Source: Candidatus Omnitrophota bacterium (GTDB lineage: Bacteria > Omnitrophota > Gorgyraeia > Gygaellales > Profunditerraquicolaceae). Taken from it: a DNA stretch of 64,000 nucleotides. The notes beneath the pieces were generated by a model. That model was not told the DNA's origin and ran no database searches. It saw only the letters and a list, made by a program, of their open reading frames with translations. Positions 33,179 to 59,828 of this stretch are shown piece by piece (positions within the stretch are counted from its first letter, which is position 1; every line of letters starts with the position of its first letter). The position numbers were made by a program, and so were the translations under genes. Location of the stretch: positions 7,737 through 71,736 of the forward strand of contig JAQUPI010000003.1 of the NCBI GenBank assembly GCA_028716705.1, written 5' to 3'.

Positions 33179-33231
33179 GGAATAAAGGGTAAAATCTACA
33201 ATAAAATCCAGTAAAAAAAAGAAATTCTTGC

Positions 33232-33259
33232 TTGACAAAACGTATTTATATGTTATACT
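33232..33259 (+). promoter_or_regulatory. Sigma70-type promoter: TTGACA - 16 bp - TATACT with TGn extended -10
   Basis: TTGACA at 33232-33237 and TGTTATACT at 33251-33259, at near-consensus spacing. Confidence 0.55.
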
Positions 33260-33276
33260 TTCAACTAGTTAAGGAA

Positions 33277-33376: not shown

Positions 33377-33392
33377 TTGGAGTAAAAAACCA

Positions 33393-34916
33393 ATGTTGAG
33401 AAAATTCAGGCTAAAGCTGGTTTACGGTTTCATATTCAGCCTCTTTATTCATGCCTTTTCTTTTGCCATGGCGAAAGAAATCAACATCCCCAGCCAGTTC
33501 GGTAGCACAAAAGAAATATTCCAGCCCGCGAATCCCGGCCCTTCCGCAGAACGCACCATCATCCATATACAGGACGCGCATTGTAATTATGAGGCCCAAA
33601 AAAACATGGCCCAGCTCTTAGATTATTTGGCCAAAGATGACAATCTTAAACTGATCATGGTCGAAGGCGGTAGCGGGGACGTCAGCTTGCGGTTTTTAAG
33701 GGGCTACGCGGATAAGAAGGCCAGAGAACAGGTCGCGGAAAAATACCTTAAGGCGGGAAAGATCTCCGGCGAAGAGTATTTGGATATCGTTTCCGATCAC
33801 GCTATAGAGCTTTACGGGATAGAGGATGAAGGCTTGTATGAAGCGCATTTGGCGAGTTTCCAAAAAGTGGATTCTTTCAGGCAGAAGGCGCTGCAAGATT
33901 TAGGGGCCTTAGCAGGCATAGTAAATGGGCTCAAATCCAGGATATATCCGGAAGATCTGCGGCGTTTAGACGAACAAAAAAGCAGTTATGAGGGGCAAAA
34001 GACCGCGTTAGCCGAATATTGCCGCTTCCTTAATAATACAGCCGCAAAAAAGAGGATCGGCCTTGGCGCTTACCCGCACCTGGGCGCCTTTTCAGAGACT
34101 GCCCGCCTGGAAAAAGAACTGGACCTTAGGCAAGCGGAAGCCCAGCGCAACGCTTTCATCAAGGATCTGGCCAAGCTTTTAAACGAAAGAGAGGCGCAGA
34201 ACCTTATCCTTATGACCCAGGGTTTTAAGGCAAAAATGATCACTCCTGAGAAATATTATTCTTTTTTGTTGGACACCGCCACCGAACAAAAGATCAACCT
34301 GAGCCGCAGGTACCCTGAGCTTGGCGCTTATATCAGGTACGTGACCACAAGCGGGAATGTAGACGCGGCCGAGCTTTTAAAGGAAGTAAACGCGGCAGAA
34401 GAGAAGATAAAAGACGCTTCATTGAGCAGCCCTGAACAGAAGAAATTATCCGAGATTGACAAATCCCTCCATATCTTGACCAAAATACTGAACTTGGAAT
34501 TGACCCCTGAAGATTACGCGTATTTCAAAGAAAACACGCGCCGGTTCATGACTGCCGGTTGGATAGGTTTTTTAAATGAAGAGTGCGACAAATATAATTT
34601 TTCCACCCGGCCTTTTTTTGTCAAGGCCATCGATGAAAACCTGAAGGAGCTTGACGGATTTTACCGGTTGGGAGTAGCAAGGGAAGAGGCCTTTATCAAT
34701 AATTTGGCGGCCAAGCTCGACGATTCAAAAGAAAAGACCGCGGCGCTCATTACCGGCGGGTTCCACACGCCGGGCATTACCCGCAATTTAAAGAACCGCG
34801 GTTATTCTTATATAGTAGTCACCCCGGTGATCACGCAGAAAAGCGAACCGGACCTTTATTTTTCCGTGCTAAGAAGCGAGAAAAGACAGCCCGTAAGGGT
34901 TTCCGATGAAGAATAG
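33393..34916 (+). CDS. Exported hypothetical protein (507 aa) with an N-terminal signal peptide; possible ChaN/EreA/Tiki-superfamily fold
   Basis: RBS GGAG. Hydrophobic N-terminus 'LVYGFIFSLFIHAFSFAMA'. The 'TIIHIQDAHCNYEAQKNMAQLLDYLAKDDNLKLIMVEGG' pattern is reminiscent of the ChaN/EreA N-terminal block (weak). The stop overlaps the next gene by 11 nt. Confidence 0.7.
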   Translation: MLRKFRLKLVYGFIFSLFIHAFSFAMAKEINIPSQFGSTKEIFQPANPGPSAERTIIHIQDAHCNYEAQKNMAQLLDYLAKDDNLKLIMVEGGSGDVSLRFLRGYADKKAREQVAEKYLKAGKISGEEYLDIVSDHAIELYGIEDEGLYEAHLASFQKVDSFRQKALQDLGALAGIVNGLKSRIYPEDLRRLDEQKSSYEGQKTALAEYCRFLNNTAAKKRIGLGAYPHLGAFSETARLEKELDLRQAEAQRNAFIKDLAKLLNEREAQNLILMTQGFKAKMITPEKYYSFLLDTATEQKINLSRRYPELGAYIRYVTTSGNVDAAELLKEVNAAEEKIKDASLSSPEQKKLSEIDKSLHILTKILNLELTPEDYAYFKENTRRFMTAGWIGFLNEECDKYNFSTRPFFVKAIDENLKELDGFYRLGVAREEAFINNLAAKLDDSKEKTAALITGGFHTPGITRNLKNRGYSYIVVTPVITQKSEPDLYFSVLRSEKRQPVRVSDEE

Positions 34917-37900
34917 ATTAAATAGAAAACAATTAAAAAGGAGAATGAAAATGAACGCAGGGAATTTCCACAAGAGTTTATTGGCCAGGATAATGAGCCT
35001 TATCATTATCGTAAATTTCATTATTACCACCGGCCCTGTGAGCCTTTACGCGCAGGACATGTTGAAGGCGCCGTCAGCGGTCCAGAAAAATGACAGTCCT
35101 GTCCAGAATTTGATCGACGATCTCAGGGCGACGCAGGCAGGCCGTGAAATAGCCGCCTTTAAACGGATCGGCATACTCACCAGCGGCGGCCCGGCTTCCG
35201 GACATAACGCGGCCATTTACGCGGCAGTCGAAAAAATGAAAGAGCAGGGCATAGAGGCAGTGGCGATCCTGGACGGTTTTGACGGATTATACGAGGAGAA
35301 ATTAGTCAGCCAGGCACGGCCCCTTAGCCTGGAAGAGGCAAGGTCCCAGCGCAATAAAGGCGGGACAATGCTCGGTACTGACCGCATGAACCCCTTTGAG
35401 GCTAAAAATGTCGCAAACGGAGTTCCGCAGGCGATCTGGACGAATATCCAGAAGCTGAAACTGGACGGCTTGATCGTTCTCGGAGGCAACGACAGCCAGA
35501 GCACGTCTTATAAATTACAACAAGAGCATCCGGATTTCCCGATCATAGGCCTGGCTAAGACTATGGATAATGATCTGGCTTTACCTGAATTGGATGCTTT
35601 AACCTACGGTTTTGATACTTTTGTCAGGGAAACCACAAGGGCCCTGATAAAAATGATCCGCGATTGCCGCTCTATGAGAAGGATCGGGGTGGTTGAGGTA
35701 TTCGGCAGGAGCGCGGGGCATGTAGCGTTGCACGCCGGAGCCAATGTCAGGGCAAGCCGTACACTTTTACCCGAGGAAGGCAACCTTGATCTAGAGCAAC
35801 TGGTGAGCGACCTTAGAGAGAGCAAAAATAATGATAAATACAGAGCAGCCTTGTTAGTAGTTTCAGAAGGCATAAGTATAAGCAAGGATTACAAGAATAA
35901 CGCAGGCATATTGGAAAAAGCTTTTGCCGAAGACGAAGTGGCCAAGGCGGCTTTTGAAAAGGCGGTTAAGGGCGCCAAAAAAGATTCCTTCGGTAATCCT
36001 AAACTGGAGAATACCGGGAAAATCATCGCCGCGGTCTTGCGCTCGCAGGGTTTAGCCGTGAGCGAAGACCAGGTTAAATACATCGCGCGTTCGGCCAACC
36101 CTTCAAAGTTAGATATCGCCATGACAGAGCTTATAGGCCGCGCGGCGGTAGAAAATCTTTTGCAGGGAAACCATGGCCGCATTTTATACGCCTATAACAA
36201 TCAAGCCAGGTCTATCCCGTTCGCCTCGGACGTGGGGGGCAGAGTAGCGGACCTGACAGGGCATAAGCAGCTGTATTTAAGGGCGAACCAGGCCTTTGAT
36301 ATTAAGGTATCGGATAAGCCGGCTCTGAATTTTGCGAATACGGCTGAAGTCAATAGCGCGATAGCCGGCATATTGGCTGTCAGCGACAAGGCTGTCAGCG
36401 TGCTTGATGAAGAACGCCTGAGGAGCCAGCTTATTGATAACCTGGTTTATGACGCTACATTCGGCAGCGATAAGGAAGTAGTTAAGCTTTGCCGCCGGCT
36501 CATTAAAGACACCGCAGCCGCCCAAGGCGCGGTGCTCGGTTCTGTTTATGAGCTTTACAGGGCGAAAGCGAAAGATAAAAAACAATATACAGTCCCGGCG
36601 ATAAATATCAGGGGCATGGGTTACAATACCAGCAGGGCGGTATTCGCCTCAGCCATAGATAACAATGCCGATAAGTTCATCTTCGAGATCGCAAGGAGCG
36701 AGATAGGTTATACGGCTCAGCGGCCGGCGGAACTAGTTACCTCCGTTTTAGCGGCGGCGATCAAGGAAGGCTATAACCTGCCTGTATACCTGCAAGGCGA
36801 TCATTTTCAGGTTACGCTTAAGGACTATACGGCAAGCCCGGAAAAAGCAAAAGATTATATTAAAGGGTTGATCCGCGAGGCGATAGAAGCGGGCTTCTAT
36901 CAGGTAGACCTGGATATGTCACAACTAGTGGATTATACCAAGGCCGATGTTCAAGAGCAGCAGGAACTGAACTACAAATTAGTGGCTGAACTTACCGCTT
37001 ACGTGAGGGATTTGGAAAGGGAATTAGGTTTAGACAGAGCGGGTATCGTTGTTAATTTGGGCGGTGAAATAGGAGAGATCGGCAAGGGCTTAGCCGAAAA
37101 GGACCAGAAGAACAGCACCGTCGCGGAATTAAGGGCGTTTATGGACGGTTACAACGCTGAATTAAAGCGCCTCAGCCAGGAAAAAGGATACGAGCTGAAC
37201 CCTATCACAAAAATCGCGATCCAGACCGGCACTCAGCATGGCGGCATCAGAAACGCCAAAGGTGAATTGGTCAGGGCCAAGGTTAGTTTTAACGCCATTG
37301 CCGAACTCGGTAAAGTAGCCAGGGAAGAATACAGCCTGGCGGGCGTAGTGCAGCATGGCGCGTCCACCCTTCCCGAAGATAATTTTACGCTTTTCGCGGG
37401 CAACACCCCGGAAGGCCTGGTTATTGATGAAAGCCTTTTGAATGAGGCTTCTAAAAATATATTGAGCACCAACCCCGCCGCCGAAGTGCATCTGGCTACG
37501 GCTTATCAAGACACGATCATCGATCATCCCAGGATGCCCGCTTCTATGGTTTCCCAAATGAGGGAATACATTTTCAGCAAAAATCCGGTTAAGGAAAACC
37601 AGAACGCGGACGGAGTCTTTGTTTCCAACCGCAAAAATGTTTGGGGCCCGTTCAAGGCCCAGGTATGGAACCTGCCTGCTGGCGTGCAAGAAGCTATGCG
37701 CGACAGCCTGCGCGGACAATTCGACGTGGTCTTTAACAATATGGGGGTGAAGAATTCATCCCAGGCGCTTATCGCGCAAAAGGCCTCCGAAAAGGCAAAG
37801 CTTGTTAAAACAAGACTGGCTATAAATAACCCCGGTGGGCAAGAACGGGAGCTTATCAGGCTTTGGCTGGCAGGCAAATCCGCCGGTATCGACTTAGTCG

Positions 37901-40900
37901 GCGTAAACGGTATTTCTCCGGGCAGCCTGTATTATCTTTTAACCAAGGATTTCACCGCCTCCCCGGATGTCAGGGCATGGTTCACCGCTAATTTCACTTC
38001 GCTGCCGGAAGGCATAGGCGACAAAAACAAGAAACTCATTCTGCCTGTCACTGAAATTATCGACGCTAAGGACTTGCCTTGGAAGAAATTGAACCCGGAT
38101 GTCGTGCTTGAGGGTTCGGATCCGCAGCTGGCGGCCAGCCATAAGAGCCAGGGCGCGAAATCCGTCATTGTTGCCCACCCGGCTTTAACCGCGGTCAGCG
38201 CCTTAATGCCGGTCATTTCCGTCATGGGCGACCAGATCAAAGGCATCAATTTTACGGATATCCAGCCGCCTACGCCTTTACAGCGCGGCCTTGATAATTC
38301 CGGTCCGGACCCGGTATTGATGCGGGCCATGGGGATTAACCTCGTTCCTTCATTAAGAAAGGACATAGACAAATATGTGCAGGCATTATGCCCCGCGGAT
38401 CTAGCCGCGCATATAAAGGGCGCGATCAATTTTGCGCCTCAGGCGTTAGGTTCATTGCTGGACGTTCATATAGTCGTAAATAAAGATACTGACGCCGCGG
38501 CTATAAATAAACTGTTCAAGGCCGCGATCGAAGGCGTTTTAAAAGGCAAGGTATCTTACTCGCAGGATTCCTCTCTGGTATCCGTGGATACTTACCAGCA
38601 GCCGCAGCTTATCTTCTTGGCCAACAACACGAAGGTTACCGGGAAGAGGATCGTGCATTTACAATTCATGCACAATGAGGAGGCGACCTTTGCCGCGACG
38701 CAAGTACCTTTATTACTGCAGGCGCTGAAGGAGGGAAAAGCCCCCTCGATTATTACATCCAAAGATACTCAAACTATCTCCGCGGACGCTCAGGTAGTCT
38801 TGGATATCATCCAGGCAGAGCAGTCTAAGATGGCCAGGCCCGCGTTCCTGGGTACCAACCTGGCTTTTATTCCCGCTCTCGACGGCAACGTCAAGCCGCG
38901 TATCGTAGTTCGCGGCAAGGCCGTTAGTCCCGCGATCGTAGGTATAAACGGTCCCGGAAGAGTGGGCAGGCCTTCGACCTGGGCAATGCAGGGGGACCCG
39001 AATGTCGACCTGAGGATGATCAACGGTTCTTCCAGCGCTTTGATCCTGTCATGGTTATTGTCCGAAGATTCCGTGCAGCAGTCAATATCAAAGCCGGTCA
39101 CAAGAATAGTAATAACCCCCGCGCAGTTAAAGAGGGAAGTTTCCTCTCTGCTGGGCAGCTACAGTATCGAGCAGGTAAACGGATTCTTGACCGGCCTGCT
39201 TAGCTCTCAAAGATTATACCTGCTTAAAGAAAAAGAAGAATTCGTTCCTTACATCAAAAACCTCCTGGCCTCTTGGGGCAAGCCCAGTAATGAGCTTGAT
39301 TCCGCGGCCAATTGGTTGCTGAAGAGCCTGGTAGGCGTTTTAGATATTAACGGTAAAAAAGTCCTGGTAGTTAACGAGAGAAAAGCGATCACGGAACTTC
39401 CCTGGGACGTAGCAGGCATAAAGACGATCATGGAGTGTACCGGGGATCTGAAGAACGCTGACGAAGCCAGGCAGCATCTGGCGCATATTTCCGGAGGCAA
39501 GGTGATCATATCCGCTCCGGCCGAAGGAGCAGGCCAGTCTATCGTCTTGGGCGTAGTAGAGCCCAGCCGCGCTGCTCAGATCGTGGATAATGCCAGCTGC
39601 ACCACCAACTGTTTAATGCCTATGGTCGCGGTTTTGAATAAGGCATTCGGCGTGCTCATGCAGGAGATCACCACTGTCCATGCTTATACCACCGACCAGA
39701 CTTACGCCAGACAGGCAACACATAAAAAGGAAGCTACCCGCGGGAGGGACGCAAGGACGAACAGCCTTCCCGGTTCTACCGGAGCTGCCAAAACCGCCGC
39801 CGTTATATATCCGGACCTTGCCGGAAGGTCCGACGGTTGGGCAGTGCGCACGCCTCACGTCACCGGTTCTGCCGTAGCCCTGACCGCTACACTTAAGGGC
39901 AATGTGACCAAAGAACAGATACAGGCGGCGTTTAAGAGCGCCAGCGAAAAGGAAATGGCCGGGATCATGGCTTATACCCAGGCCCCGATCGTTTCTTCAA
40001 TGATCATCGGCAACCCGGCTTCCAGCATCATTGACGGTAATGCCATTGAAATCATCAGCTACGACGAAGAACTTGACCAGACCACAGCCGGTATTACCTC
40101 CTGGTATGACAATGAATATGGTTTCTCAAACCGTATGGTGAACCTTGCCGTAGCCCTGCAAGGCTTCTCTTTGATCAAAGGGAAAGCCCTGGCAGACATA
40201 GGCCCCAAAACCGTCGAGTTATTTGAAAACAAAATAAAAGAGATCTCTCCTGCCACGGTAGTCTGGAACGGGCCGATGGGCGTAGTGGAAGTTGCGGCTA
40301 CGAGCAAGGGTACTGACGGAGTGGCCATGGCGATCACCGCCTTAGGCGATAAAGTAGTTAAGGTTGTGGGAGGGGGGGATACCTTAAAGACGCTTTCGGA
40401 AGAAGAACGCGAGAAATTCACGCACGTCTCAACCGGCGGCGGCGCCTTCCTGGAGGCATTTCAATTCGGCGTGGATAATCTCCCGGGGATTAAGGCCCTG
40501 ATCGATCCTTCCACGGGCAAGATGGCGACGATGGACGGGCTCCTGCCGGTTTTGAAAGAGGGAGATACCGTCTTGATACGAGTTGACTTCAACGTGCCTT
40601 TGGATTCGCAATTAAAAGTAACAGATAGCACCAGGATCAAAGAAACAATGGTTACCATAAGGCCGTTGTTAGAGAAAAAGGCCAAGGTCATCCTGATGAG
40701 CCATTTAGGCCGGCCTAACGGGAAATTCGACGCTAAGCTTACCATGAACCCGGTGGCTTATGAACTGCAGAAACTCTTGCTAAAAACCAAAGTACATAAA
40801 TTGGATGACTGCGTGGGTAAGCCCGTGCAGGATTTTATCCAGAATACGGTAAAGCCCGGTGAAGTCGTAATGCTGGAGAATACCCGTTTTCGGTTAGACG

Positions 40901-42408
40901 AAGAACAGAATGCCTCTGGTTTTTCAAAGGATTTAAGCCAGCTGGCCACATATTACATTGATGACGCCTTTGGCACCGCGCACCGCGCGCATGCTTCGAA
41001 CGGCGGCATTACCTCAAATTACGCCTGGGGCAAGAAGTTCGCTGGCAGGCTTCTGGAGAAAGAAGAGCAGTATCTGAAACAGGTCTGCGAGAGTCCCAAG
41101 GAGCCCATGGTCGTAGTTTTGGGCGGAGGCAAGGTCAGCGATAAGATACATATCATCAATACCTTGAAACAGAAAGCGTCTGCTTTCCTGATCGGCGGAA
41201 GGATGTCTTTGGCATTCTTGGCAGCTCAGGGTCAGCAAGTCGGTGATTCCACGCCCGATAAACTTGACGTGGATACCGCCAAACGTTTCCTCGCCGATCC
41301 GCAGTTAAAAGGCAAGATCATTCTGCCGCAGGATAACATGGTGGTTACCGATATCTCTACGGGCGCGGACGCGACAGTTGTAGAAGGCAGTGTTGAGCCT
41401 TCGGATATGAGCGCGTTCCAGGAACAATTCCTGGCTTACCTTAAGTCTTATGTTGCTCTTGAAAGCGCGGAAGGAAAAGCGCTCGCTGCCGTCCAGAAAG
41501 CTGAAACCGAAGCCAGGCGGCTTATAGGTCTTCCCACCGCGCCAGAAGCTGCTCCTACTGTAACTCAGGCGGCAGTCGATCCCGCTCAATTAAGGTTCGG
41601 CGAGGCGAATGGTTTCCTTACTCCTGAGTCGCAGGCCAGAAACAAACCGGATTTCCAATATACCATGGGTTTTGGGGATGCCGCTAATTCCTACAGACCA
41701 GCCTCTGATTTAAGCCCGGCACTGCTGGTTCCCGAAGGCACCGTGTATACGGGAACTTCCGTGCTTTTCGGTAATTTCGCAAATGCCGTTAAGAATCGTG
41801 ATATAGCCGAAAGGGACGGCGCTGTCGTCATAGGGGCGAACGTGATATTGGAGAACGCGGGCTCTTTGACCAGCCTGAAGGCATTCAAGGATACAGGAAA
41901 AATCGTTGTTTATGCGCAAGACACTTCAACCCTGGAAGTTTTAAAAGCCATGGGGATAGATTCGGTAACGAAAAATATCATAAACGGGGAAACAAAAGGC
42001 GTCTCGATCGAGAATATCGCCATAGAATACAGCATGTCGGGCGAGACCGTCCTGGTTACCGCTCCCGTGGATCGTAAAGATATCAACTTAGGCAACATTC
42101 AAAAGGCTGGTGTCCGGATGTTGAATCTGGAGACGCCCAAAACTGAAGTAGGCAAGATAAACAGCATGCCGCTGGTTATCGCCAGGGCATTTGCCAGGAT
42201 TTACCAGGAAGACGCGAATGTGCCCAGGCAATTTAACACCTTAAGCAACAATTACGCAACGAAGAACCAGGTATTGGCGACAGATATCGAGAAGCTTAAC
42301 AACCTGGCTTCCCAGATCTGCGACGTGCCTTTAGTGCAGTTGAATATGGAGCAGGATAAAGAGATAATCGCGGCCCAGATGGCTTACCAGGCGGCCGTAA
42401 GCATATAA
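34906..42408 (+). CDS. 2500-aa fusion protein: N-terminal signal/anchor, then phosphofructokinase, class II fructose-bisphosphate aldolase, a ~400-aa unknown module, GAPDH, a circularly permuted phosphoglycerate kinase, and a conserved C-terminal domain
   Basis: Single stop-free frame. All four enzyme families are recognisable by their hallmark motifs in series (see sub-features). The start overlaps the upstream gene, which implies translational coupling. Confidence 0.9.
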   Translation: MKNRLNRKQLKRRMKMNAGNFHKSLLARIMSLIIIVNFIITTGPVSLYAQDMLKAPSAVQKNDSPVQNLIDDLRATQAGREIAAFKRIGILTSGGPASGHNAAIYAAVEKMKEQGIEAVAILDGFDGLYEEKLVSQARPLSLEEARSQRNKGGTMLGTDRMNPFEAKNVANGVPQAIWTNIQKLKLDGLIVLGGNDSQSTSYKLQQEHPDFPIIGLAKTMDNDLALPELDALTYGFDTFVRETTRALIKMIRDCRSMRRIGVVEVFGRSAGHVALHAGANVRASRTLLPEEGNLDLEQLVSDLRESKNNDKYRAALLVVSEGISISKDYKNNAGILEKAFAEDEVAKAAFEKAVKGAKKDSFGNPKLENTGKIIAAVLRSQGLAVSEDQVKYIARSANPSKLDIAMTELIGRAAVENLLQGNHGRILYAYNNQARSIPFASDVGGRVADLTGHKQLYLRANQAFDIKVSDKPALNFANTAEVNSAIAGILAVSDKAVSVLDEERLRSQLIDNLVYDATFGSDKEVVKLCRRLIKDTAAAQGAVLGSVYELYRAKAKDKKQYTVPAINIRGMGYNTSRAVFASAIDNNADKFIFEIARSEIGYTAQRPAELVTSVLAAAIKEGYNLPVYLQGDHFQVTLKDYTASPEKAKDYIKGLIREAIEAGFYQVDLDMSQLVDYTKADVQEQQELNYKLVAELTAYVRDLERELGLDRAGIVVNLGGEIGEIGKGLAEKDQKNSTVAELRAFMDGYNAELKRLSQEKGYELNPITKIAIQTGTQHGGIRNAKGELVRAKVSFNAIAELGKVAREEYSLAGVVQHGASTLPEDNFTLFAGNTPEGLVIDESLLNEASKNILSTNPAAEVHLATAYQDTIIDHPRMPASMVSQMREYIFSKNPVKENQNADGVFVSNRKNVWGPFKAQVWNLPAGVQEAMRDSLRGQFDVVFNNMGVKNSSQALIAQKASEKAKLVKTRLAINNPGGQERELIRLWLAGKSAGIDLVGVNGISPGSLYYLLTKDFTASPDVRAWFTANFTSLPEGIGDKNKKLILPVTEIIDAKDLPWKKLNPDVVLEGSDPQLAASHKSQGAKSVIVAHPALTAVSALMPVISVMGDQIKGINFTDIQPPTPLQRGLDNSGPDPVLMRAMGINLVPSLRKDIDKYVQALCPADLAAHIKGAINFAPQALGSLLDVHIVVNKDTDAAAINKLFKAAIEGVLKGKVSYSQDSSLVSVDTYQQPQLIFLANNTKVTGKRIVHLQFMHNEEATFAATQVPLLLQALKEGKAPSIITSKDTQTISADAQVVLDIIQAEQSKMARPAFLGTNLAFIPALDGNVKPRIVVRGKAVSPAIVGINGPGRVGRPSTWAMQGDPNVDLRMINGSSSALILSWLLSEDSVQQSISKPVTRIVITPAQLKREVSSLLGSYSIEQVNGFLTGLLSSQRLYLLKEKEEFVPYIKNLLASWGKPSNELDSAANWLLKSLVGVLDINGKKVLVVNERKAITELPWDVAGIKTIMECTGDLKNADEARQHLAHISGGKVIISAPAEGAGQSIVLGVVEPSRAAQIVDNASCTTNCLMPMVAVLNKAFGVLMQEITTVHAYTTDQTYARQATHKKEATRGRDARTNSLPGSTGAAKTAAVIYPDLAGRSDGWAVRTPHVTGSAVALTATLKGNVTKEQIQAAFKSASEKEMAGIMAYTQAPIVSSMIIGNPASSIIDGNAIEIISYDEELDQTTAGITSWYDNEYGFSNRMVNLAVALQGFSLIKGKALADIGPKTVELFENKIKEISPATVVWNGPMGVVEVAATSKGTDGVAMAITALGDKVVKVVGGGDTLKTLSEEEREKFTHVSTGGGAFLEAFQFGVDNLPGIKALIDPSTGKMATMDGLLPVLKEGDTVLIRVDFNVPLDSQLKVTDSTRIKETMVTIRPLLEKKAKVILMSHLGRPNGKFDAKLTMNPVAYELQKLLLKTKVHKLDDCVGKPVQDFIQNTVKPGEVVMLENTRFRLDEEQNASGFSKDLSQLATYYIDDAFGTAHRAHASNGGITSNYAWGKKFAGRLLEKEEQYLKQVCESPKEPMVVVLGGGKVSDKIHIINTLKQKASAFLIGGRMSLAFLAAQGQQVGDSTPDKLDVDTAKRFLADPQLKGKIILPQDNMVVTDISTGADATVVEGSVEPSDMSAFQEQFLAYLKSYVALESAEGKALAAVQKAETEARRLIGLPTAPEAAPTVTQAAVDPAQLRFGEANGFLTPESQARNKPDFQYTMGFGDAANSYRPASDLSPALLVPEGTVYTGTSVLFGNFANAVKNRDIAERDGAVVIGANVILENAGSLTSLKAFKDTGKIVVYAQDTSTLEVLKAMGIDSVTKNIINGETKGVSIENIAIEYSMSGETVLVTAPVDRKDINLGNIQKAGVRMLNLETPKTEVGKINSMPLVIARAFARIYQEDANVPRQFNTLSNNYATKNQVLATDIEKLNNLASQICDVPLVQLNMEQDKEIIAAQMAYQAAVSI
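35160..36235 (+). other. pfk: Domain: 6-phosphofructokinase (PFK-A family; residues suggest a PPi-dependent type)
   Basis: 'RIGILTSGGPASGHNAAI', 'LIVLGGNDSQST', 'GLAKTMDNDLALPELDALTYGFDT' and 'EVFGRSAGHVALHAG'. The D in GGNDS and the K in AKTMDND correspond to the Asp/Lys pair typical of PPi-PFKs. Confidence 0.8.
36580..37650 (+). other. fba: Domain: class II (metal-dependent) fructose/tagatose-bisphosphate aldolase
   Basis: 'YTVPAINIRGMGYNT', 'LPVYLQGDHFQV', 'YQVDLDMS', 'IQTGTQHGG' and 'VVQHGASTLPED' correspond to class II FBA blocks. Confidence 0.65.
38895..40160 (+). other. gap: Domain: glyceraldehyde-3-phosphate dehydrogenase
   Basis: 'IVGINGPGRVGR', 'GGKVIISAP', 'IVDNASCTTNCLMP', 'TVHAYTTDQ', 'SLPGSTGAAK' and 'WYDNEYGFSNRMVNL'. 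Confidence 0.9.
40190..40510 (+). other. pgk: Domain: the last ~105 residues of PGK (nucleotide-binding half), placed upstream of the PGK N-domain
   Basis: 'DIGPKTVELF', 'VVWNGPMGVVEV', 'VVGGGDTL', 'HVSTGGGAFLE' and 'LPGIKAL' are normally the C-terminal blocks of PGK. Confidence 0.85.
40565..41395 (+). other. pgk: Domain: PGK N-terminal (3-phosphoglycerate-binding) domain through the hinge and the first part of the C-domain
   Basis: 'LIRVDFNVPL', 'ILMSHLGRPNG', 'VMLENTRF', 'YIDDAFGTAHRAHAS', 'VVLGGGKVSDKIHIINTL' and 'FLIGGRMSLAFLAAQG'. Confidence 0.9.
41740..42405 (+). other. Conserved ~222-aa C-terminal domain of unknown function, shared with the next ORF
   Basis: 'VYTGTS..GNFA', 'GxNVILENAG.xTSL', 'VVYAQD', 'KINSMPL.I.RAF' and 'LNNLASQ.CDVPLV.L' align colinearly with 47470-48138. 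Confidence 0.8.
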
Positions 42409-42453
42409 GCCACACTTTAACACAATAACACACCTTAAAACGGAGGTTATGTC

Positions 42454-45400
42454 ATGCGGCCTTTGAAGCCCGGCTCATTACGCAAAATCATTATATTCCT
42501 TACCCTTGTCAGTTTCATTGCGTCTTTCGCGCCGGCTCAACTCTACGCGCAGATCCTTTCCGATACGCTCAGGACATCTTCGGCCAGGGCTACTGCCGTA
42601 AAGGATGAGATCGCCGTTGATCTGCTTAGAAGCGGCAAGCTTCCCTATGTGGTCACCTACGCAGACCCGCGCTCCGAAAGGAAAGAGACTGCCGGGGGAA
42701 AGTGCGCGCAGCTGGCCTGGGCATATAACCGGGGGATCCCCAATCCTCTGGGTTTTAGCATAACCGTGGAAGCGGTGAGGGAGTATTACAGGTACAATCC
42801 CAAACTCATAGAGATGATCAAAGATGCGCGTAACCTTGACATAAACGATGCCAAGAAACGCGCGGAGACAGCTTTACGGATACAGAATTTTATGATGAAG
42901 GAAACGAAGCTCCCTCCGGCCGTTTTTAAGGCGGTAAGCGATGACCTCGTGATGATGAGCAGGGTCTTGGGTTATGAAGAGGACGAGATGGTCCCGGTCG
43001 CCTACCGGGGAAGCGGCGTTATCGAAGACTTTGAAGGAGCCATACCCTGGTTCAAGAAAACGATCGGAGCCCAGCCGGGGCAAGGCACCACGCTGCTCAA
43101 CAAGCGCGGTTTTACCGATATTGAGCCATCGGTGATCGAAGTTATCGCCGGCTTGTTCAATGACCAGATATTCGTCTACCGCGATGTCCAGATCTTTTTT
43201 GATTTTGTGAGCAAGATGCGGGATGTCTCAGAGTATAACAAATTGATCCTTTGGGCGAAGAAATACGGTTTTAACGTTGCGGCCAGCAGGCTGGAGAATG
43301 AAAATTCACCCGGCTATGTCAACCTGCGCAAGATGATCGAGGAGATCGAGGCAAAGGAGCCGGGGGCGAAAGAGCAATATAAATGGGGTGATAAACTTGA
43401 GAAATCGGCAAACGATATCCTGGAGCCCATGAATTTTGTTACCGGCATTGCCGTGCTGGAAATGGCGGATAGTTTATTTTCCGGAACCGCATTCACTTCA
43501 CACCTGGGAACCGGATTCGACGGCTCAACATTCGCCAAGAAAACAAAAGGTCTTTTCCCGAAGAAGAGAGGGGATAAGTTCGATGGTTATACCCGCTATG
43601 TAAAAATAAATTTAGGCACAGGGTTAGGGCCCGGCATTGTAGAAGGAAAATTCCAGCCGAATATCGTAACCTTCTTTGATATTACCGGCCAGGGCAAATG
43701 GGTGCCTACCGAATTTTCAGTGGGCAAGAAACACATGAGTTTGATATATATAGATAAGGTTATCGATTCTTTAGCACCAAAATTCGCAAGGGAACAGATC
43801 TACCTCTTTGCCCAGTTATACGCGGATTGGCAAAACCCGATCAAGCAGCAGGGGGTCCGGGTCGCCCTTAAAACGGAGTTCAATATCGAAGCGGAAAGCT
43901 GGATACGGGCGATGATGGACCTGTGGTATTTTTATGATAAACCCGATAAACATAAAGCCACCGCCCAGGAAAAAGCGGTTTTATTGAAGGAACTCAACGT
44001 AAACGAAAATGAATTCTTTACCTTAAGCCATTTAGTCAAACATATCAATAAGGTCGCGACCAGTTATGATACGGCCTCTTATATGCTTACTTCCCCGGAA
44101 CTCGCGTCGAGCAGGCTTTTAAGCGATGAAGGTTACAAGAAACTCGCGGACATGATCGCTAAAGTCGGCAATCTTATGGCCCAGGAGCGGTTTGAGGCCG
44201 CCGACAAGGGCTGGCGCGAGCGCAGGGATATCGAGTTTTCGGTTGTCCGCTGCAACGAAAACGACACAAGTAAATATAAGGTAAAACTGGAACATATTTA
44301 TGACCTGGTAACCGGCAATGACCTGGGGGAGGGCTGGGTAAAGATACTGCATATCCAGAACCGGCCGATCAATCCGGAAAAAGAGATACAGGACCCGGAT
44401 AACATAATTTTCAAGAAGATGAAGGTCGACGAAGATTTTGTGGACGGCCAGGGTATTTTGCCTATCGCGAAAAACGGGCTGGTTGGCTATGGAGCGGCTG
44501 AAGGCATGCTTTATTTTGTCGATCCTTACAACGACCTGGCTGAGCAAGAAGAAGAAGTCGCGAAGATGAAAGACCAGGGAAAGAGCGTGATCGTGGTCCT
44601 GGAAGAAATGGGCCCTGAGCATGATCCTATAGTAGAAAAAGCGGGCGCCGCGATCGTGTGGAGGGGTAATGACACCAGCCACGCTTATATATTCAGCCTG
44701 GAATTAAAGATCCCCATCGTTATAAACGCGGCTACGCAGCCAGGGTTCGAAGGATATCTTAAGGACCGCATGAACGCGGTTATTGACGGCTCAGGGGGAA
44801 TGATCTATCCCGGAGATAAAGAGATCCCTCTGCTTCCGGACAATCTGATCATACGCGTAGACATGCTTCCGGAGACGAAAGTCGGGATGATCGTTTCCAC
44901 GCTGCAAAGCGCGCAGGAGGTAGCGCGGTTAGGAGCGAAGAGTGTCCTTACCCGTATGGAATTTTTGATCAATAATGTAGTCAAAATATACCCGCAGGCG
45001 GGTTGGGCCTATGACCTGATGACCAAGCTGGATAACGGGCAGATAAGCGAGTCCGGCCTTACTCCCGAAGAGCTGAAAGACGTAGCGGCATTAAGGCAGC
45101 ATCCGGAGATAATAGAAGAGATCAGAAAGATGATCACAAGCTTTCCGTCGGCAACTGAATTCATGGCTGAAAAGATGCGTTATGCCGGCAACGCGCTTGG
45201 TTCTATCTTTCCTATACTTAATGAAATGCGCGCCTACGATAATAAGGAAAAAGAAGCGCTTCTTTACGGGCTTATCGGCGCCAAACTTTATCTGCGTTAT
45301 GACGATAAAAATCCTGAATTCGATTCCCCGTTGGTCGGCATGCGCGGCTCAGCGTTAATGAGCCATCCGCATCTAAAGAAGGGATTTCAGGCTTTAAACA

Positions 45401-48141
45401 GGGGCGTCATCCGCTCGGTGAAAGACGGGTTTAAAAACAATGCCTTTTTCTTCGTTTATCTGAGGAATACCCATGAGCTGAAAACGCAGCTTGCAGACTT
45501 CGAGAGACTATGCCAGGAGGAAGGGGCCTATCCTGAAGAGATCGGCACCATGATCGAACTGGGAGGCAATCTCTGGATGATAAAAGAGGTCAGCCAGATA
45601 TTTTCCGATTTTGTGGCAAAACATAAAAAAGACGGCGTTAAGCGGTGGTATATTTCTTTCGGGACCAATGACCTTACCAATTCGCTCGGCAAGACCTCGA
45701 GGGACGATAAAGACTTTACCGGGGAGCTAAAGGTGCTGCAACCGGCGTTGATCAACGCGGATCCAGCTGAGGCAAAGATTGAAGTTGTCCCTGGCGCGGT
45801 TTACGGGCCCAAAGAATACGGCCAGCCTTTTACCGTCACTCTTAACGATGAGGCGGCTCCGGGGGTAATACGCTTTATAGAAAATGCCACCGCGGTTGTC
45901 AGAAATATGGGCGGCCATGTATATTTGTGCGGACAGGCGGTGAGCAAGGCCATCAACAAGGGGGATGTGCAGACCGGGATGAAACTTTTATCTGTATTGG
46001 ACGCGGTCGGCACGCAGAGTATTACCTTTGTATCCGGGGCAATGCTTGATTTTGATACCCGGGTTTCGCTTACCCGGATATCGAAAGACGCCTTATCCGA
46101 CAAGACGCCCGCCGCTAAATTATCCGACATTAAAAAAGAGGCGGAAAACGCGGTTTTGATTTCAGAGTCTGTGGTAGTGGAAAAACCGCAGGATATACTT
46201 AAGCTCCGTGAAGGGCAGAATAAACAGAAGATAGTGATAATGAAAACAACCTGGGAGCGCAAAGACCTGGAAGATATGGGTATCCCGTGGGATTACCTTA
46301 ATTACGCCGGAGCTATCCTGTTGTCTAACGGGGTAAAACCCGGGACAGGCATCCTCGCGGAGCCGGGAGTAAAATCCAGGGTTAAGGCCAGGCTTATCGG
46401 GGGAGCGACCATCGTTTCCGGAGAACCGTTGACAATAGCATACGGCGAACAAGCTGTGTATAAAGGCGTCTATTCTACGTATGCCGAAGAGACCAGGGTC
46501 CCGCAGCTGCGTATGCCTAAAGAGGGGATGATCCCGGTGGCCAAACCCATAATACGCATAAGCGCGGGCGACCTCTTCGTGCGCCGGGGCGATAGCCCCG
46601 CGGCAATTGACATACATCCTTTGGCATTCGCGCTGTATAAAGCGAACCCCGACGCGGTCTCTCAAGAGACCCGCGCGGCGATCGTGGGGCTTATCGGCGG
46701 CGAAGATCCGTTAATTTACCTGCATGAACGTTTTGTCGAATATGTGGCGGCGAAGGCACAAGAGGCGGTCCAGAATAACCGGGTCCCGGTTTATACTCTT
46801 TTGCGGCTTACCCGTAACCAGTTGAGGGATCTTAAGGAGGGTGAGGCGATAGAAAAGACAAAGGGCAAAGAGGGGGTTAACTTTGACGACCCGCAGTGCC
46901 GCTTACAGGGAGGCGCCAGGGCACTTAATGATTTTTGGCAGATATTTAACACGGAAATAGCGGCGTTTAGGGAAGTAAAAACCGGATACCCGGCCATGGC
47001 GTTGCAATTGTCGGCAATGGGAACGCGTTCCCAGGAAGTAATAGAGATGCTGTTTCGCGCCCTCAAGCCCTTGGGCATAACCCCGCAGGATCAGGAGATA
47101 GGACTTGAACTTACTACGGCGCTTGACCCTTTGCAGGTAGAAGATTATATAAAGCAAGGCATTAAGTTTTTCAGTTATAATGACAGGGAATTGGCGGAAG
47201 CCCTTCTTTCTGTTAATTTGAACCACCCCGATATATTCTCCGTAGAAGGCAAAGAAGCGATGGTTAAACAGGCACTGGAAGCCCCCGTCGCTTACATAAA
47301 AGGCATTGTTGCGGAAAACGCCGATAGCGGCGTATGGGTAGGCTTAAACCCGCAGCAATCAGCAGTTGAAACCGCAGTTATCCCCGCGGCTCCCCTCGAG
47401 CCTTTGGTTACCGCGCCCGCGGAGCGTCTTAGGCGTGAGCTTGATGAAACAACCCTCTACACATCTGAGAGCGCGGTTTACACAGGCACTTCCGAGCGCT
47501 TGGGAAATTTTGCTGATTCAATAAAAGATTCAAAGCTTGAGAAAAATAGCGCGACAATAATCTTAGGCGGGAATGTAATACTTGAAAACGCGGGGGCAAT
47601 GACTTCCCTTATGAGATTTAAAGGGACCGGTAATTTAGTGGTCTATGCCCAGGATGGAGCAATATTAAATGCTTTGAAAGCCATGGGGGCGGATGAAGTT
47701 GTGAACGCCATAATAAGCCGGCAGGAGGTTCAACAGGATCTGGCTGAGCTTGCCTTTGATTATGCTAAAAAAGGGCCAACCGTTTTGATCACTTCTCCCC
47801 TGGACCGTAAGGGCGTGGATTTGACGAGTATTCCTTATGGAGTGCAATTAGTGAATCTTGATTCACCCAAGCCCGAAGAGGGGAAAATAAACAGCATGCC
47901 GCTGGCTATTTCCCGGGCATTTACCGCCATTTTGAAGAATGACCCGGCTGTGGTCAGTCAGTTCAATGCCCTAAGCCAGAATTACGCCGCTAAGGGTCGG
48001 ATATCCGGTAGAGATTTAGAGGCATTGAACAACCTGGCCTCGCAGGTTTGCGACGTACCGCTTGTAGAGTTAACTCAACAAAAAGACAGGGAAGTGATCG
48101 AGGCCCAGATAGCCTATCAAGCTACGGTAGGCCAGATTTAA
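42454..48141 (+). CDS. 1895-aa fusion protein: signal peptide, a pyruvate phosphate dikinase / PEP synthase-family enzyme (ATP-grasp N-domain, phosphohistidine domain, PEP-utilising TIM barrel), a ~480-aa unknown region, and the shared C-terminal domain
   Basis: RBS GGAGG. Signal 'IIIFLTLVSFIASFAPAQLYAQ'. Dikinase motifs 'AGGKCAQLA...GIPNPLGFSIT', 'VWRGNDTSHAYIFSLELKIPIV', 'WYISFGTNDLTNSLG' and 'VYLCGQA'. Confidence 0.85.
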   Translation: MRPLKPGSLRKIIIFLTLVSFIASFAPAQLYAQILSDTLRTSSARATAVKDEIAVDLLRSGKLPYVVTYADPRSERKETAGGKCAQLAWAYNRGIPNPLGFSITVEAVREYYRYNPKLIEMIKDARNLDINDAKKRAETALRIQNFMMKETKLPPAVFKAVSDDLVMMSRVLGYEEDEMVPVAYRGSGVIEDFEGAIPWFKKTIGAQPGQGTTLLNKRGFTDIEPSVIEVIAGLFNDQIFVYRDVQIFFDFVSKMRDVSEYNKLILWAKKYGFNVAASRLENENSPGYVNLRKMIEEIEAKEPGAKEQYKWGDKLEKSANDILEPMNFVTGIAVLEMADSLFSGTAFTSHLGTGFDGSTFAKKTKGLFPKKRGDKFDGYTRYVKINLGTGLGPGIVEGKFQPNIVTFFDITGQGKWVPTEFSVGKKHMSLIYIDKVIDSLAPKFAREQIYLFAQLYADWQNPIKQQGVRVALKTEFNIEAESWIRAMMDLWYFYDKPDKHKATAQEKAVLLKELNVNENEFFTLSHLVKHINKVATSYDTASYMLTSPELASSRLLSDEGYKKLADMIAKVGNLMAQERFEAADKGWRERRDIEFSVVRCNENDTSKYKVKLEHIYDLVTGNDLGEGWVKILHIQNRPINPEKEIQDPDNIIFKKMKVDEDFVDGQGILPIAKNGLVGYGAAEGMLYFVDPYNDLAEQEEEVAKMKDQGKSVIVVLEEMGPEHDPIVEKAGAAIVWRGNDTSHAYIFSLELKIPIVINAATQPGFEGYLKDRMNAVIDGSGGMIYPGDKEIPLLPDNLIIRVDMLPETKVGMIVSTLQSAQEVARLGAKSVLTRMEFLINNVVKIYPQAGWAYDLMTKLDNGQISESGLTPEELKDVAALRQHPEIIEEIRKMITSFPSATEFMAEKMRYAGNALGSIFPILNEMRAYDNKEKEALLYGLIGAKLYLRYDDKNPEFDSPLVGMRGSALMSHPHLKKGFQALNRGVIRSVKDGFKNNAFFFVYLRNTHELKTQLADFERLCQEEGAYPEEIGTMIELGGNLWMIKEVSQIFSDFVAKHKKDGVKRWYISFGTNDLTNSLGKTSRDDKDFTGELKVLQPALINADPAEAKIEVVPGAVYGPKEYGQPFTVTLNDEAAPGVIRFIENATAVVRNMGGHVYLCGQAVSKAINKGDVQTGMKLLSVLDAVGTQSITFVSGAMLDFDTRVSLTRISKDALSDKTPAAKLSDIKKEAENAVLISESVVVEKPQDILKLREGQNKQKIVIMKTTWERKDLEDMGIPWDYLNYAGAILLSNGVKPGTGILAEPGVKSRVKARLIGGATIVSGEPLTIAYGEQAVYKGVYSTYAEETRVPQLRMPKEGMIPVAKPIIRISAGDLFVRRGDSPAAIDIHPLAFALYKANPDAVSQETRAAIVGLIGGEDPLIYLHERFVEYVAAKAQEAVQNNRVPVYTLLRLTRNQLRDLKEGEAIEKTKGKEGVNFDDPQCRLQGGARALNDFWQIFNTEIAAFREVKTGYPAMALQLSAMGTRSQEVIEMLFRALKPLGITPQDQEIGLELTTALDPLQVEDYIKQGIKFFSYNDRELAEALLSVNLNHPDIFSVEGKEAMVKQALEAPVAYIKGIVAENADSGVWVGLNPQQSAVETAVIPAAPLEPLVTAPAERLRRELDETTLYTSESAVYTGTSERLGNFADSIKDSKLEKNSATIILGGNVILENAGAMTSLMRFKGTGNLVVYAQDGAILNALKAMGADEVVNAIISRQEVQQDLAELAFDYAKKGPTVLITSPLDRKGVDLTSIPYGVQLVNLDSPKPEEGKINSMPLAISRAFTAILKNDPAVVSQFNALSQNYAAKGRISGRDLEALNNLASQVCDVPLVELTQQKDREVIEAQIAYQATVGQI
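44640..44730 (+). other. Phosphohistidine (PEP-utilising mobile) domain motif
   Basis: 'GNDTSHAYIFSLELKIPIV' parallels 'GGRTSHAAIIARELGIPAVVG'. Confidence 0.8.
47470..48138 (+). other. Second copy of the shared ~222-aa C-terminal domain (paralogous to 41740-42405)
   Basis: See 41740-42405. Confidence 0.8.
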
Positions 48142-48156
48142 GGTGGGGTTTCTAAT

Positions 48157-48205
48157 AAGGCCTCTGAAAAAATCAATGAAAACTTTTCAGGGGCCTTATT
48201 TCCTT
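48157..48205 (+). terminator. Rho-independent terminator after the 1895-aa ORF
   Basis: AAGGCCTCTGAAAA (48157-48170), a 13-nt loop, then TTTTCAGGGGCCTT (48184-48197), followed by a T-rich 'ATTTCCTT'. Confidence 0.6.
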
Positions 48206-48233
48206 ATAATTATGTGTTGCATAATCTTATAAT
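48182..48233 (+). promoter_or_regulatory. AT-rich region with two TATAAT boxes (48205-48210 and 48228-48233) upstream of the second PilZ gene; candidate promoter
   Basis: Perfect TATAAT hexamers, but only weak -35 candidates. Confidence 0.3.
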
Positions 48234-48299
48234 TTATGATAGCATGAATTTCTTAGAAAAAGCCACCACGGAAAAAGCCACGGAGAAAGGAAAGGAGGC

Positions 48300-48629
48300 A
48301 TGGACGACCGTAGGGTTTTTGAGCGCATCGGCACGAAGCTGCCCGTCAGATTCTTAGACCCCATAAGCGGCAAAGAAGGTACCGCGGATACAACTGATAT
48401 CAGCGCCAACGGCCTTGGTATGGTGACCAATGAGAGCTTAAGAACCATGACTCCTTTAGAGATGTGGCTGGGAATCCCCGATAAACACGAGCCCCTTTAT
48501 ACGCGAGGCCAGGTAGTCTGGTCAGAATCCCTCCCCAGTTCCGGAGAATACCGCATCGGCATACGGCTGGAAAAAGCAGAATTAATGGGCTTAGCCAGGG
48601 TGTTATGGCTTAAGAGGCGCGCAGGTTAA
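48300..48629 (+). CDS. Single-domain PilZ protein, a paralog of the one at 32849-33178
   Basis: RBS AAGGAGG. Motifs 'RRVFER' and 'DISANG'. The sequence is colinear with the first PilZ, including the shared C-terminal 'EKAELMG.ARVL'. Confidence 0.8.
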   Translation: MDDRRVFERIGTKLPVRFLDPISGKEGTADTTDISANGLGMVTNESLRTMTPLEMWLGIPDKHEPLYTRGQVVWSESLPSSGEYRIGIRLEKAELMGLARVLWLKRRAG

Positions 48630-48680
48630 GCGCAGTTTCCGGCGACAGGAACCCTTAACCTCTTTGGGAAAATTGATAGT

Positions 48681-49970: not shown

Positions 49971-49973
49971 ACG

Positions 49974-50852: not shown

Positions 50853-50857
50853 AAGAG

Positions 50858-51706: not shown

Positions 51707-51711
51707 AAAAA

Positions 51712-51743
51712 TTGTTTAATGTGGAAGGTATATTTGTTATAAT
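51712..51743 (+). promoter_or_regulatory. Promoter with extended -10 (TGTTATAAT at 51735-51743) upstream of the MFS gene; an imperfect palindrome lies downstream (about 51764-51793)
   Basis: Consensus TATAAT with a TGn extension. 'CACCCAAACC...GGTTTGGTGTG' is a near-inverted repeat lying between the promoter and the RBS AAGGAG. Confidence 0.45.
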
Positions 51744-51822
51744 GCCATTTTAATTGTGATTAACACCCAAACCTATTTGATGGTTTGGTGTGCACTTGCT
51801 GCGTAAGGAGAAAGGGTAATTA

Positions 51823-53319: not shown

Positions 53320-53325
53320 GGCTGG

Positions 53326-55689: not shown

Positions 55690-55720
55690 AAAACAGCCCT
55701 TCTGGGCAAGGAGGTAAAAG

Positions 55721-56872: not shown

Positions 56873-56910
56873 CGAATAACGAATAAGATAAGGCAGGGTA
56901 AGAGAAAAAC

Positions 56911-59807: not shown

Positions 59808-59828
59808 AAGTTTTACATCCATTAATAC

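Follow-up and report, generated by a model that had tools for sequence, protein, structure and literature searches.

Why should an enzyme of central carbon metabolism begin with what looks like an export signal and extend to 1895 residues? The question is raised by a dikinase gene in a 64,000-nucleotide stretch of DNA from a Candidatus Omnitrophota bacterium (assembly GCA_028716705.1, contig JAQUPI010000003.1, positions 7,737 to 71,736 of the forward strand), which is referred to here, at its full length, as the window. The encoded protein appears to be a divergent enzyme of the phosphoenolpyruvate (PEP) synthase type that carries a conserved N-terminal leader and a C-terminal domain of about 225 amino acids (aa). 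The C-terminal domain, which is shared with many other enzymes of glycolysis and gluconeogenesis, is the main finding and is apparently undescribed; together with the leader it constitutes what is apparently a phylum-wide and so far undescribed feature of Omnitrophota central metabolism. The features of the gene, numbered by position in the window, are listed below.

42442..42446, + strand: GGAGG, a Shine-Dalgarno-like sequence 7 nucleotides (nt) upstream of the start codon (ATG, 42454), from inspection of the sequence.
42454..48141, + strand: the dikinase open reading frame (ORF), G1895, 1895 aa with an ATG start, taken from the ORF table.
42454..42588, + strand: N-terminal leader, aa 1-45, from a hydropathy scan and comparison with homologues and with other carriers of the C-terminal domain.
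42643..44388, + strand: ATP-grasp nucleotide-binding domain, aa ~64-645, from Pfam, a MAFFT alignment with E. coli PpsA and the family alignment.
44551..44823, + strand: phosphohistidine swivel domain, aa ~700-790, from Pfam and alignments to 2ols, 9dae and E. coli PpsA.
44851..46038, + strand: PEP/pyruvate-binding TIM barrel, aa ~800-1195, from Pfam, the E. coli PpsA alignment and invariant columns.
46078..47373, + strand: probable degenerate swivel (aa ~1209-1340) and TIM-barrel copy (aa ~1364-1640), from a profile search against the PDB, hhalign and an AlphaFold2 (AF2) model.
47452..48138, + strand: C-terminal domain, a new alpha/beta domain, aa ~1667-1895, ending exactly at the C-terminus (AQIAYQATVGQI and stop).

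A first-pass annotation, made from the sequence without database searches, had called the 1895-aa ORF, and the ORF table, the upstream GGAGG and the full-length homologues all establish it as real. The stop codon of a 2500-aa gene lies only 45 nt upstream. Full-length homologues with 55-66% identity come from independent metagenomes, so 42454..48141 is a gene and no chance ORF. A word-indexed search of 5.8 billion proteins returned 11 relatives with 41-100% identity, one of them labelled Candidatus Omnitrophota, and an alignment of eight sequences of the family is conserved across nearly its entire length, which together indicate a real, rare gene of Omnitrophota. At least two residues (e.g., D314E and P497S) distinguish P0001, the cluster representative listed with 100% identity, from the window translation; the source of P0001 is therefore a very close strain to that of the window, and the contig is not identical.

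The C-terminal domain links this protein to a much wider set of enzymes. Its profile covers aa 1665-1895 of the dikinase, and the domain shares 51% identity with the final 226 aa of the 2500-aa neighbour (BLASTP) and 36-51% with its counterparts in other carriers. An exhaustive HMMER search of 1.84 billion representative proteins with aa 1190-1895 gave 80 matches, about 60 of them through the C-terminal domain alone, and in these domain-only matches it nearly always forms the very C-terminal end of a protein 200-2500 aa long. The domain ends at most 5 residues from the protein C-terminus in 56 of 72 carriers, typically with AQ[IV]xYEETVxKI. Pfam analysis of 37 carriers identified PEP-utilizers_C (12), PPDK_N (8), the PEP-utilizers mobile domain (8), GAPDH (7), PGK (6), PFK (6), class II aldolase (6), GatZ-like aldolase (4), triosephosphate isomerase, abbreviated TIM or TPI (3), cupin GPI (3), and aldose epimerase, FBPase glpX and PGI (1 each). 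The remaining families were one DHH and one Polysacc_synt_C, the latter in P0047 inside that protein's cupin GPI stretch. Single-enzyme carriers include a TIM of 668 aa, an aldolase of 645 aa, GPIs of 635 and 660 aa, a PFK of 1178 aa and a PGK of about 1600 aa. Dozens of Omnitrophota proteins thus carry the domain, among them PGI, PFK, aldolase, FBPase, TIM, GAPDH, PGK and PEP synthase, and all four of the C-terminal-domain loci found in GTDB species genomes belong to Candidatus Omnitrophota. Beside these, an F420_oxidored (NADP oxidoreductase-like) protein of 624 aa in a related locus (L001, 16066-17940) has both the leader (NNLRKPDARDGG) and the C-terminal domain, and the DHH-family protein, P0058, likewise has the domain, so the tag is not strictly limited to textbook glycolytic enzymes.

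Neither the C-terminal tail nor the inserts of the dikinase matched any family in Pfam (E ≤ 10) or NCBIfam (E ≤ 1). A homologous-protein search with the C-terminal domain alone returned nothing, and one with a six-sequence profile returned three short proteins only. The model of the domain is a three-layer alpha/beta structure with a generic Rossmann/HAD-like core, for which a Foldseek comparison with known structures gave no match at E ≤ 1e-3. Compared with the Rossmannoid fold of the HAD superfamily, half of the domain is alignable, at 7-16% identity. The consensus after strand 1 is VIGANxIxENAG, so that G-A-N stands at the position, assigned by eye, where HAD enzymes have the DxD nucleophile of motif I; HAD phosphatase activity is ruled out for this reason. 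A sorting domain of the type IX secretion system (T9SS) kind and an autotransporter barrel were also considered and are ruled out by the three-layer alpha/beta model.

The leader is the second shared element. It has a basic n-region (R2, K5, R10 and K11), a 15-residue hydrophobic core (aa 12-26), Pro27 and the site PAQLYA/Q, where the slash marks the predicted cleavage position. By inspection, this conforms to the layout of a predicted Sec signal peptidase I substrate, taken as a basic n-region, an h-region of 7-15 residues, a helix breaker and small residues at -3 and -1. The site resembles those of exported proteins encoded in the same window (RAYA/ED and ALA/QE), and aa 12-30 form the sole hydrophobic segment of the dikinase protein in a hydropathy scan. 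The site is followed by DTLRT, which fits the family motif [DN]xLR[PT]; the leader is conserved among the dikinase homologues and also in other proteins that have the C-terminal domain. Across different enzymes the leader starts with M..(Q)FFK[KR]x[LF]Fx[KR], a hydrophobic stretch and polar-F-[IV]-[LF]-[TS]-[SG]-x-P, and ends with x-S-x-Y-A, a spacer of 3-8 aa and [DN]xLR[PT], often with KDGG further on. A hydrophobic leader segment is present in 38 of 50 complete-looking carriers, all 38 of which have an L[RK]x motif after it; the 12 without a leader are mostly obvious fragments. Such conservation of sequence goes far beyond that of a generic signal peptide. The signal-like N-terminus that the first-pass annotation described is borne out in its basic n-region, hydrophobic core and LYA/Q site, and the LYAQ likeness to the 2500-aa ORF, which it also pointed out, proves to be a piece of this wider conserved leader. 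A twin-arginine translocation signal is ruled out, because in many leaders the arginine pair is absent or KK stands instead, and so is a lipoprotein signal, as there is no lipobox; some relatives have ...GYC/S, in which the Tyr at -1 is unfit. With its extreme C-terminal domain of ~225 aa and its leader with DTLRT, the dikinase belongs to the grouping of tagged enzymes that we propose.

Between the two tags lies a dikinase whose catalytic sites, judged by their conserved motifs, are intact. Pfam recognises PPDK_N at E 4.6e-21 (aa 78-435), the PEP-utilizers mobile domain at E 2.9e-8 (aa 710-781) and PEP-utilizers_C at E 7.9e-6 (aa 807-1099), each above its gathering cut-off. This agrees with the three insert-bearing dikinase modules recognised earlier and disposes of the objection that no dikinase hidden Markov model would match. 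The resulting order of ATP-grasp, His swivel and PEP-binding TIM barrel is the one PEP synthase requires, and the protein is collinear with all of E. coli PpsA in a MAFFT alignment. Relative to PpsA, the ATP-grasp domain retains GGK83, R185, E191/D192, GQ, E336, GLGPGIVEG, D592/E594 and Q635-N-R-P, and has large inserts at about aa 246-330, 437-590 and 598-630. In the swivel domain, the catalytic His743 of GNDTSHA (codon 44680-44682) aligns with His421 of PpsA, and Thr741 aligns with the regulatory Thr419. The phmmer alignment to the PEP synthase of Neisseria (2ols) pairs RGNDTSHAYIFSLELKIPIVI with the catalytic-His segment of that enzyme, and the RGNDTSHAYIF segment is included in the alignment to 2ols. 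The TSH triplet, whose alignment to the catalytic His had been singled out as decisive for the dikinase assignment, is therefore correctly placed. The TIM barrel retains R834/E836, R964, E1035, N1072/D1073 and Cys1159, and has inserts at about aa 855-885 and 1085-1130. Its SFGTNDLT and LCGQA align with SIGSNDMT and ICGQG of PpsA, and Cys1159 corresponds to Cys751. All catalytic and ligand motifs that were checked are invariant in the eight-sequence family alignment.

The first-pass annotation had favoured a bottom step of the pyruvate, phosphate dikinase (PPDK) type, a view that the profile scores, the structure matches and the less diverged relatives do not uphold. The dikinase scores 155.2 bits with PRK06464 and 141.6 bits with TIGR01418, both PEP synthase models of NCBIfam, and 43.6 bits with the PPDK model TIGR01828, which covers only aa 65-130 and has a cut-off of 843.45. 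All PDB matches at E < 1e-5 are PEP synthases (2ols, 8a8e and 9dae among the solved structures); PPDK chains appear at E values of 6.8e-4 and above, up to 7e-3, versus 1e-20 for PEP synthase. Two further Omnitrophota proteins found through the shared C-terminal domain, P0022 (1473 aa) and P0044 (1417 aa), share their leader, second barrel and C-terminal domain with the dikinase. Both lie above the PEP synthase equivalog cut-offs (938 and 866 bits versus 598; 879 and 821 versus 740) and below the PPDK cut-off (about 114 versus 843 bits). The identity between G1895 and P0022 is 24% in the dikinase core and 36% in the C-terminal domain. The evidence sides with a PEP synthase (pyruvate, water dikinase) type rather than PPDK, with the limit that the choice between water and inorganic phosphate (Pi) as acceptor is not readable from sequence. 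A bottom step based on pyrophosphate (PPi) is accordingly not indicated. We regard it as probable that the dikinase, which evolves fast and is rich in inserts, belongs to a branch of PEP synthases specific to Omnitrophota and tagged with the leader and the shared C-terminal domain.

What follows the TIM barrel, aa ~1196-1895, is about 700 aa long and not the roughly 480 aa of unassigned sequence first described, and it is assignable in two parts, a degenerate second half of a PEP synthase (module 2) and the C-terminal domain. A six-sequence profile of module 2 found two matches only in the PDB, both of them PEP synthases (2ols, E 1.7e-4; 8a8e, E 2.5e-4). The match to 2ols spans the end of the swivel domain and the barrel, and that to 8a8e pairs GIKFFSYDDRELAEALL with GIDFVSFGTNDLTQYTL. 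In a direct hhalign comparison of modules 1 and 2, the swivel part matched weakly (E 0.019, probability 2.5%). The AF2 model of aa 1190-1895, built from eight sequences, is confident at aa 1209-1340 and 1364-1520, with an overall predicted local distance difference test score of 66; it leaves aa 1520-1678 without a defined structure, and Foldseek on the model was uninformative. In the less diverged relatives, two PEP-utilizers_C stretches are directly visible. Module 2 is thus probably a tandem swivel and barrel copy, and probably non-catalytic, because it has no swivel histidine and the cysteine of LCGQ is lost (VWVGL); GTNDL has likewise become YNDRE.

These observations suggest a mechanism in which the chemistry is that of a textbook PEP synthase and the packaging is new. 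From the conserved residues, the ATP-grasp domain would pass a phosphate of ATP to His743 of the swivel domain, the swivel domain would bring it to the TIM barrel, and the barrel would interconvert pyruvate and PEP with Cys1159 as the proton donor. This core has four additions: the leader, the probably dead second swivel and barrel, the 225-aa C-terminal domain and the large ATP-grasp inserts. The leader and the C-terminal domain are the two tags that Omnitrophota also attach to PGI, PFK, aldolase, FBPase, TIM, GAPDH and PGK, in single enzymes or shuffled fusions that are often encoded directly after a giant membrane-protein gene. In the proposed scheme, the leader would take each tagged enzyme to the cytoplasmic membrane and the C-terminal domain would hold the enzymes together, or on a common partner, as a membrane-associated pathway assembly, to which the dikinase would supply the pyruvate/PEP step. 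We give this scheme of leader and C-terminal domain an even chance of being correct.

The genes that precede the dikinase in the window bear on this proposal and are as follows.

185..32797, + strand: giant membrane protein of 10,870 aa, from the ORF table, Pfam and a hydropathy scan.
33393..34916, + strand: signal-peptide-bearing protein of 507 aa with the motif IIHIQDAHCNYEAQK, recognised by synteny in the related loci L001 and L002.
34906..42408, + strand: the 2500-aa fusion, from Pfam, BLASTP and PFK motifs.

As the first-pass annotation proposed, the dikinase has glycolytic neighbours, standing in one row on the + strand with a PFK-aldolase-GAPDH-PGK fusion and a giant that contains iPGM. 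The order within the 2500-aa fusion is leader, PFK, GatZ-like class II aldolase, degenerate GAPDH, GAPDH, PGK and C-terminal domain, the last at aa 2273-2498 (nt 41722-42399). The degenerate GAPDH copy, at aa ~970-1250 (Gp_dh_C, E 6.5e-8), precedes the good copy and parallels the dead swivel and barrel of the dikinase; tandem "ghost" duplicates seem to be recurrent in these proteins. The PPi-type residues previously read in the PFK module (window 35100-36200) are present: GGNDS and AKTMDND place Asp and Lys at the two discriminating positions, which we take to be the hallmark of a PPi-dependent phosphofructokinase. In the same module the catalytic-loop Asp of GGDxS is Asn. Enolase and TPI, said earlier to be unaccounted for, were indeed not detected by Pfam in the parts of the window that were scanned.

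The giant has no N-terminal signal peptide, and its iPGM (aa 1839-2338, nt 5699-7198) comes before the first hydrophobic segment; for these two reasons the iPGM is predicted to be cytoplasmic. No copy of the C-terminal domain was found in the giant with the domain profile (hmmsearch --max). The iPGM module is complete, and of the giant's many hydrophobic segments the first, at aa 2373-2404, 2469-2493 and 2974-2995, come shortly after it. Also present in the giant are a DOT1-like methyltransferase (aa 101-217) and, after the iPGM, HTH, PCMT and other methyltransferase, HEAT and TPR domains, with a VTT domain in the C-terminal cluster of membrane segments. The 507-aa protein gave no informative family or PDB match. 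A signal-bearing protein of ~500 aa with the motif TIIHIQDAHCNYEAQK occupies the same place in the window, in L001 (5362-6855) and in L002 (1994-3514), with the giant gene on one side and the enzyme fusions on the other in all three loci; it could help to process or assemble the tagged enzymes. The order of giant gene, ~500-aa protein and enzyme fusions recurs in L001 and L002 with different enzymes. L001 consists of a giant, a 497-aa protein, an FBPase_3 protein, a PEP-synthase-like protein, the F420_oxidored protein with leader and tail, and a TIM-GAPDH-PGK fusion. L002 has a giant of 19,004 aa, PilZ, a 506-aa protein, TIM+FBPase_3 and PEP-synthase-like+PGK, and continues with three short genes that have no informative family, a second PilZ and the same ABC transporter and GH2-like genes as the window.

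A near-consensus sigma-70-like site at 33232-33259 (+ strand; TTGACA, 16 nt spacer, TG, TATACT; 11 of 12 matches), ~130 nt ahead of the 507-aa gene, could drive the 507-aa, 2500-aa and 1895-aa genes as one operon; a promoter and terminator scan of 32500-49000 gave counts no better than shuffled sequences. Downstream of the dikinase, a 540-nt gap (48142-48680) without an ORF of at least 150 aa on either strand separates it from the transporter genes. The block at 48681-63103 (+ strand), which is a sugar uptake and polysaccharide block, encodes a lipoprotein solute-binding protein, two ABC permeases and an MFS_2 transporter, as well as two GH2-like/TPR proteins, an HTH-containing ROK-family protein and a regulator of the LacI type.

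In which direction, and on which side of the membrane, would such a pathway run? PEP synthase is classically gluconeogenic in bacteria, the PPi type of PFK is a reversible enzyme, and FBPase_3, the gluconeogenic FBP aldolase/phosphatase family, stands together with TIM in place of PFK in the syntenic loci of relatives. The glycolytic direction is therefore not established, and the first-pass suggestion that the dikinase completes lower glycolysis becomes one of two readings. As for the side, its description of the proteins as secreted or anchored is a prediction from sequence and conflicts with the predicted-cytoplasmic iPGM of the giant neighbour. We lean, at slightly less than an even chance, toward a cytoplasm-side assembly of the tagged enzymes that is membrane-associated or scaffolded, and consider true export of the tagged set possible at a somewhat lower probability, the remainder going to some other arrangement.

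Several observations weigh against the assignment of the dikinase to PEP synthase and against its place in a tagged assembly. Its scores are far below the PEP synthase equivalog cut-offs (155.2 versus 598 bits; 141.6 versus 739.75 bits), and a core that has diverged much more than the tail could mean that the substrate or acceptor has changed. That the C-terminal domain serves assembly is deduced from its distribution; its glycine-rich loop VIGANxIxENAG and the acidic residue that follows strand 2 would suit a regulatory, ligand-binding role as well. None of the 37 tagged carriers sampled contained enolase, pyruvate kinase or PGM, so the "whole pathway" is not tagged, and one relative, P0007 in L004, stands alone without glycolytic neighbours.

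With regard to the chemistry, a PPDK-type, PPi-linked enzyme could complete a PPi-based glycolysis of PPi-PFK and PPDK by converting PEP + AMP + PPi to pyruvate + ATP + Pi. The adjoining PFK module with its PPi-type Asp and Lys residues fits this idea, as do the downstream sugar ABC transporter, MFS transporter, GH2-like proteins and ROK/LacI regulators, which suggest sugar catabolism, and a dikinase that passes no equivalog cut-off leaves its phosphate acceptor unreadable from the sequence. We nevertheless consider it improbable, since the PPDK model trails the PEP synthase models by more than 100 bits and covers only aa 65-130, the nearest solved structures are PEP synthases, the less diverged tagged relatives are PEP synthase equivalogs, and a gluconeogenic FBPase_3 or glpX FBPase occurs in the relatives' loci. 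Slightly less probable still is a repurposed core, serving another acceptor or acting as a structural or scaffold subunit while a P0022-type enzyme elsewhere in the genome performs the pyruvate/PEP step. Such a change of role would account for the identities of 24% in the core and 36% in the tail relative to a tagged PEP synthase of canonical type, and it would suit the five or six large inserts and the degenerate duplicates common here, namely the dead swivel and barrel and the degenerate GAPDH copy next door. Against it, every catalytic and PEP/Mg-binding residue is retained, without variation among eight homologues whose identity falls as low as 41%, a pattern that indicates purifying selection on the classical active sites.

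With regard to location, the leader could be a cleaved Sec signal that places the tagged enzymes, the dikinase among them, in the periplasm of a predatory nanobacterium or on its surface or coat, where they would act on prey phosphosugars with the C-terminal domain as a surface or sorting anchor. We give this version of export a little over one chance in three. Known two-step sorting systems pair a signal peptide with a conserved domain at the extreme C-terminus, as the tagged proteins do with their leader and C-terminal domain. The n-h-c layout with a small-x-small site (LYA/Q, SYA/, GYA/) resembles the exported proteins of the window, basic residues before the hydrophobic core outnumber those after it, and the dikinase has no second hydrophobic segment; moreover, two preprints report extracytoplasmic predictions for metabolic modules of giant proteins (bioRxiv 10.1101/2023.11.21.568195; 10.64898/2026.06.07.730766). 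On the other hand, no supply of ATP, AMP, NAD and PPi is known outside the cytoplasm, the predicted-cytoplasmic iPGM of the giant would split the pathway across the membrane, and the leader is present on PEP synthase equivalogs that are possibly the cell's only copy. The conserved core motif polar-F-I-L-T-S-x-P is unusual for a generic signal peptide, and the C-terminal domain is neither a beta-barrel nor an Ig-like sorting domain. The most far-reaching form, a dedicated sorting and assembly system in which almost the whole Embden-Meyerhof/gluconeogenic set is tagged and exported as a prey-fed extracytoplasmic sugar-phosphate pathway with PEP synthase as its ATP-linked end, seems unlikely to us.

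Parts of this picture have been touched on before. West-Roberts et al. 2023 (bioRxiv 10.1101/2023.11.21.568195) described TIM, GPI, FBPase, PGM/PMM and aldolase domains in the "Archaeovorins" of Omnitrophota, and glycolytic and "PPDK" ("pyruvate-diphosphate kinase") domains in giant proteins of the phylum. A 2026 preprint (10.64898/2026.06.07.730766) describes "multi-enzyme metabolic clusters" and statistics on signal peptides and transmembrane segments, and finds GAPDH, PGK and enolase in all 176 of its complete genomes. The available portions of both contain no mention of such fusions, a shared C-terminal domain, a family-specific leader, a dead second barrel or an affinity to PEP synthase rather than PPDK, and those of Seymour et al. 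2023 (PMC10066038) likewise contain no mention of such fusions, the C-terminal domain, the leader or the dead second barrel. The two tags would turn a published puzzle, that of metabolic domains in giant proteins predicted to lie outside the cell, into two defined and testable modules. The surprise lies in the same two tags recurring across a phylum and in shuffled fusions near giant genes. If the enzymes are tethered, cells about 0.2 µm across would contain a membrane-bound pathway assembly; if they are exported, sugar-phosphate metabolism would take place outside the cytoplasm. For annotation, these Omnitrophota domains would be better named PEP synthase than PPDK, and pathway calls for the phylum should flag such matches as tagged, fused proteins.

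Among known systems, PpsA (EC 2.7.9.2; TIGR01418/PRK06464; 2ols, 8a8e, 9dae) has the same domain order and the same Thr-x-His, Cys and PEP/Mg motifs as the dikinase. Unlike PpsA, the dikinase is more than twice as long and has a signal-like leader, inserts in the ATP-grasp domain and barrel, a tandem, probably dead swivel and barrel copy and the 225-aa C-terminal domain. PPDK (EC 2.7.9.1; TIGR01828; 1dik, 2x0s) has the superfamily and the swivelling-histidine mechanism in common with the dikinase, which in contrast matches the PPDK model over aa 65-130 only; earlier papers assign these Omnitrophota domains to PPDK, since the N-terminal Pfam model bears the name PPDK_N. The Archaeovorin giants come from the same phylum and likewise place glycolytic and dikinase domains in long proteins with signal peptides or membrane segments and puzzling extracytoplasmic predictions. 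Unlike these giants, the largest class of which has at least 30,000 aa, the dikinase is encoded by a separate gene of 1,895 aa that adjoins a giant of 10,870 aa.

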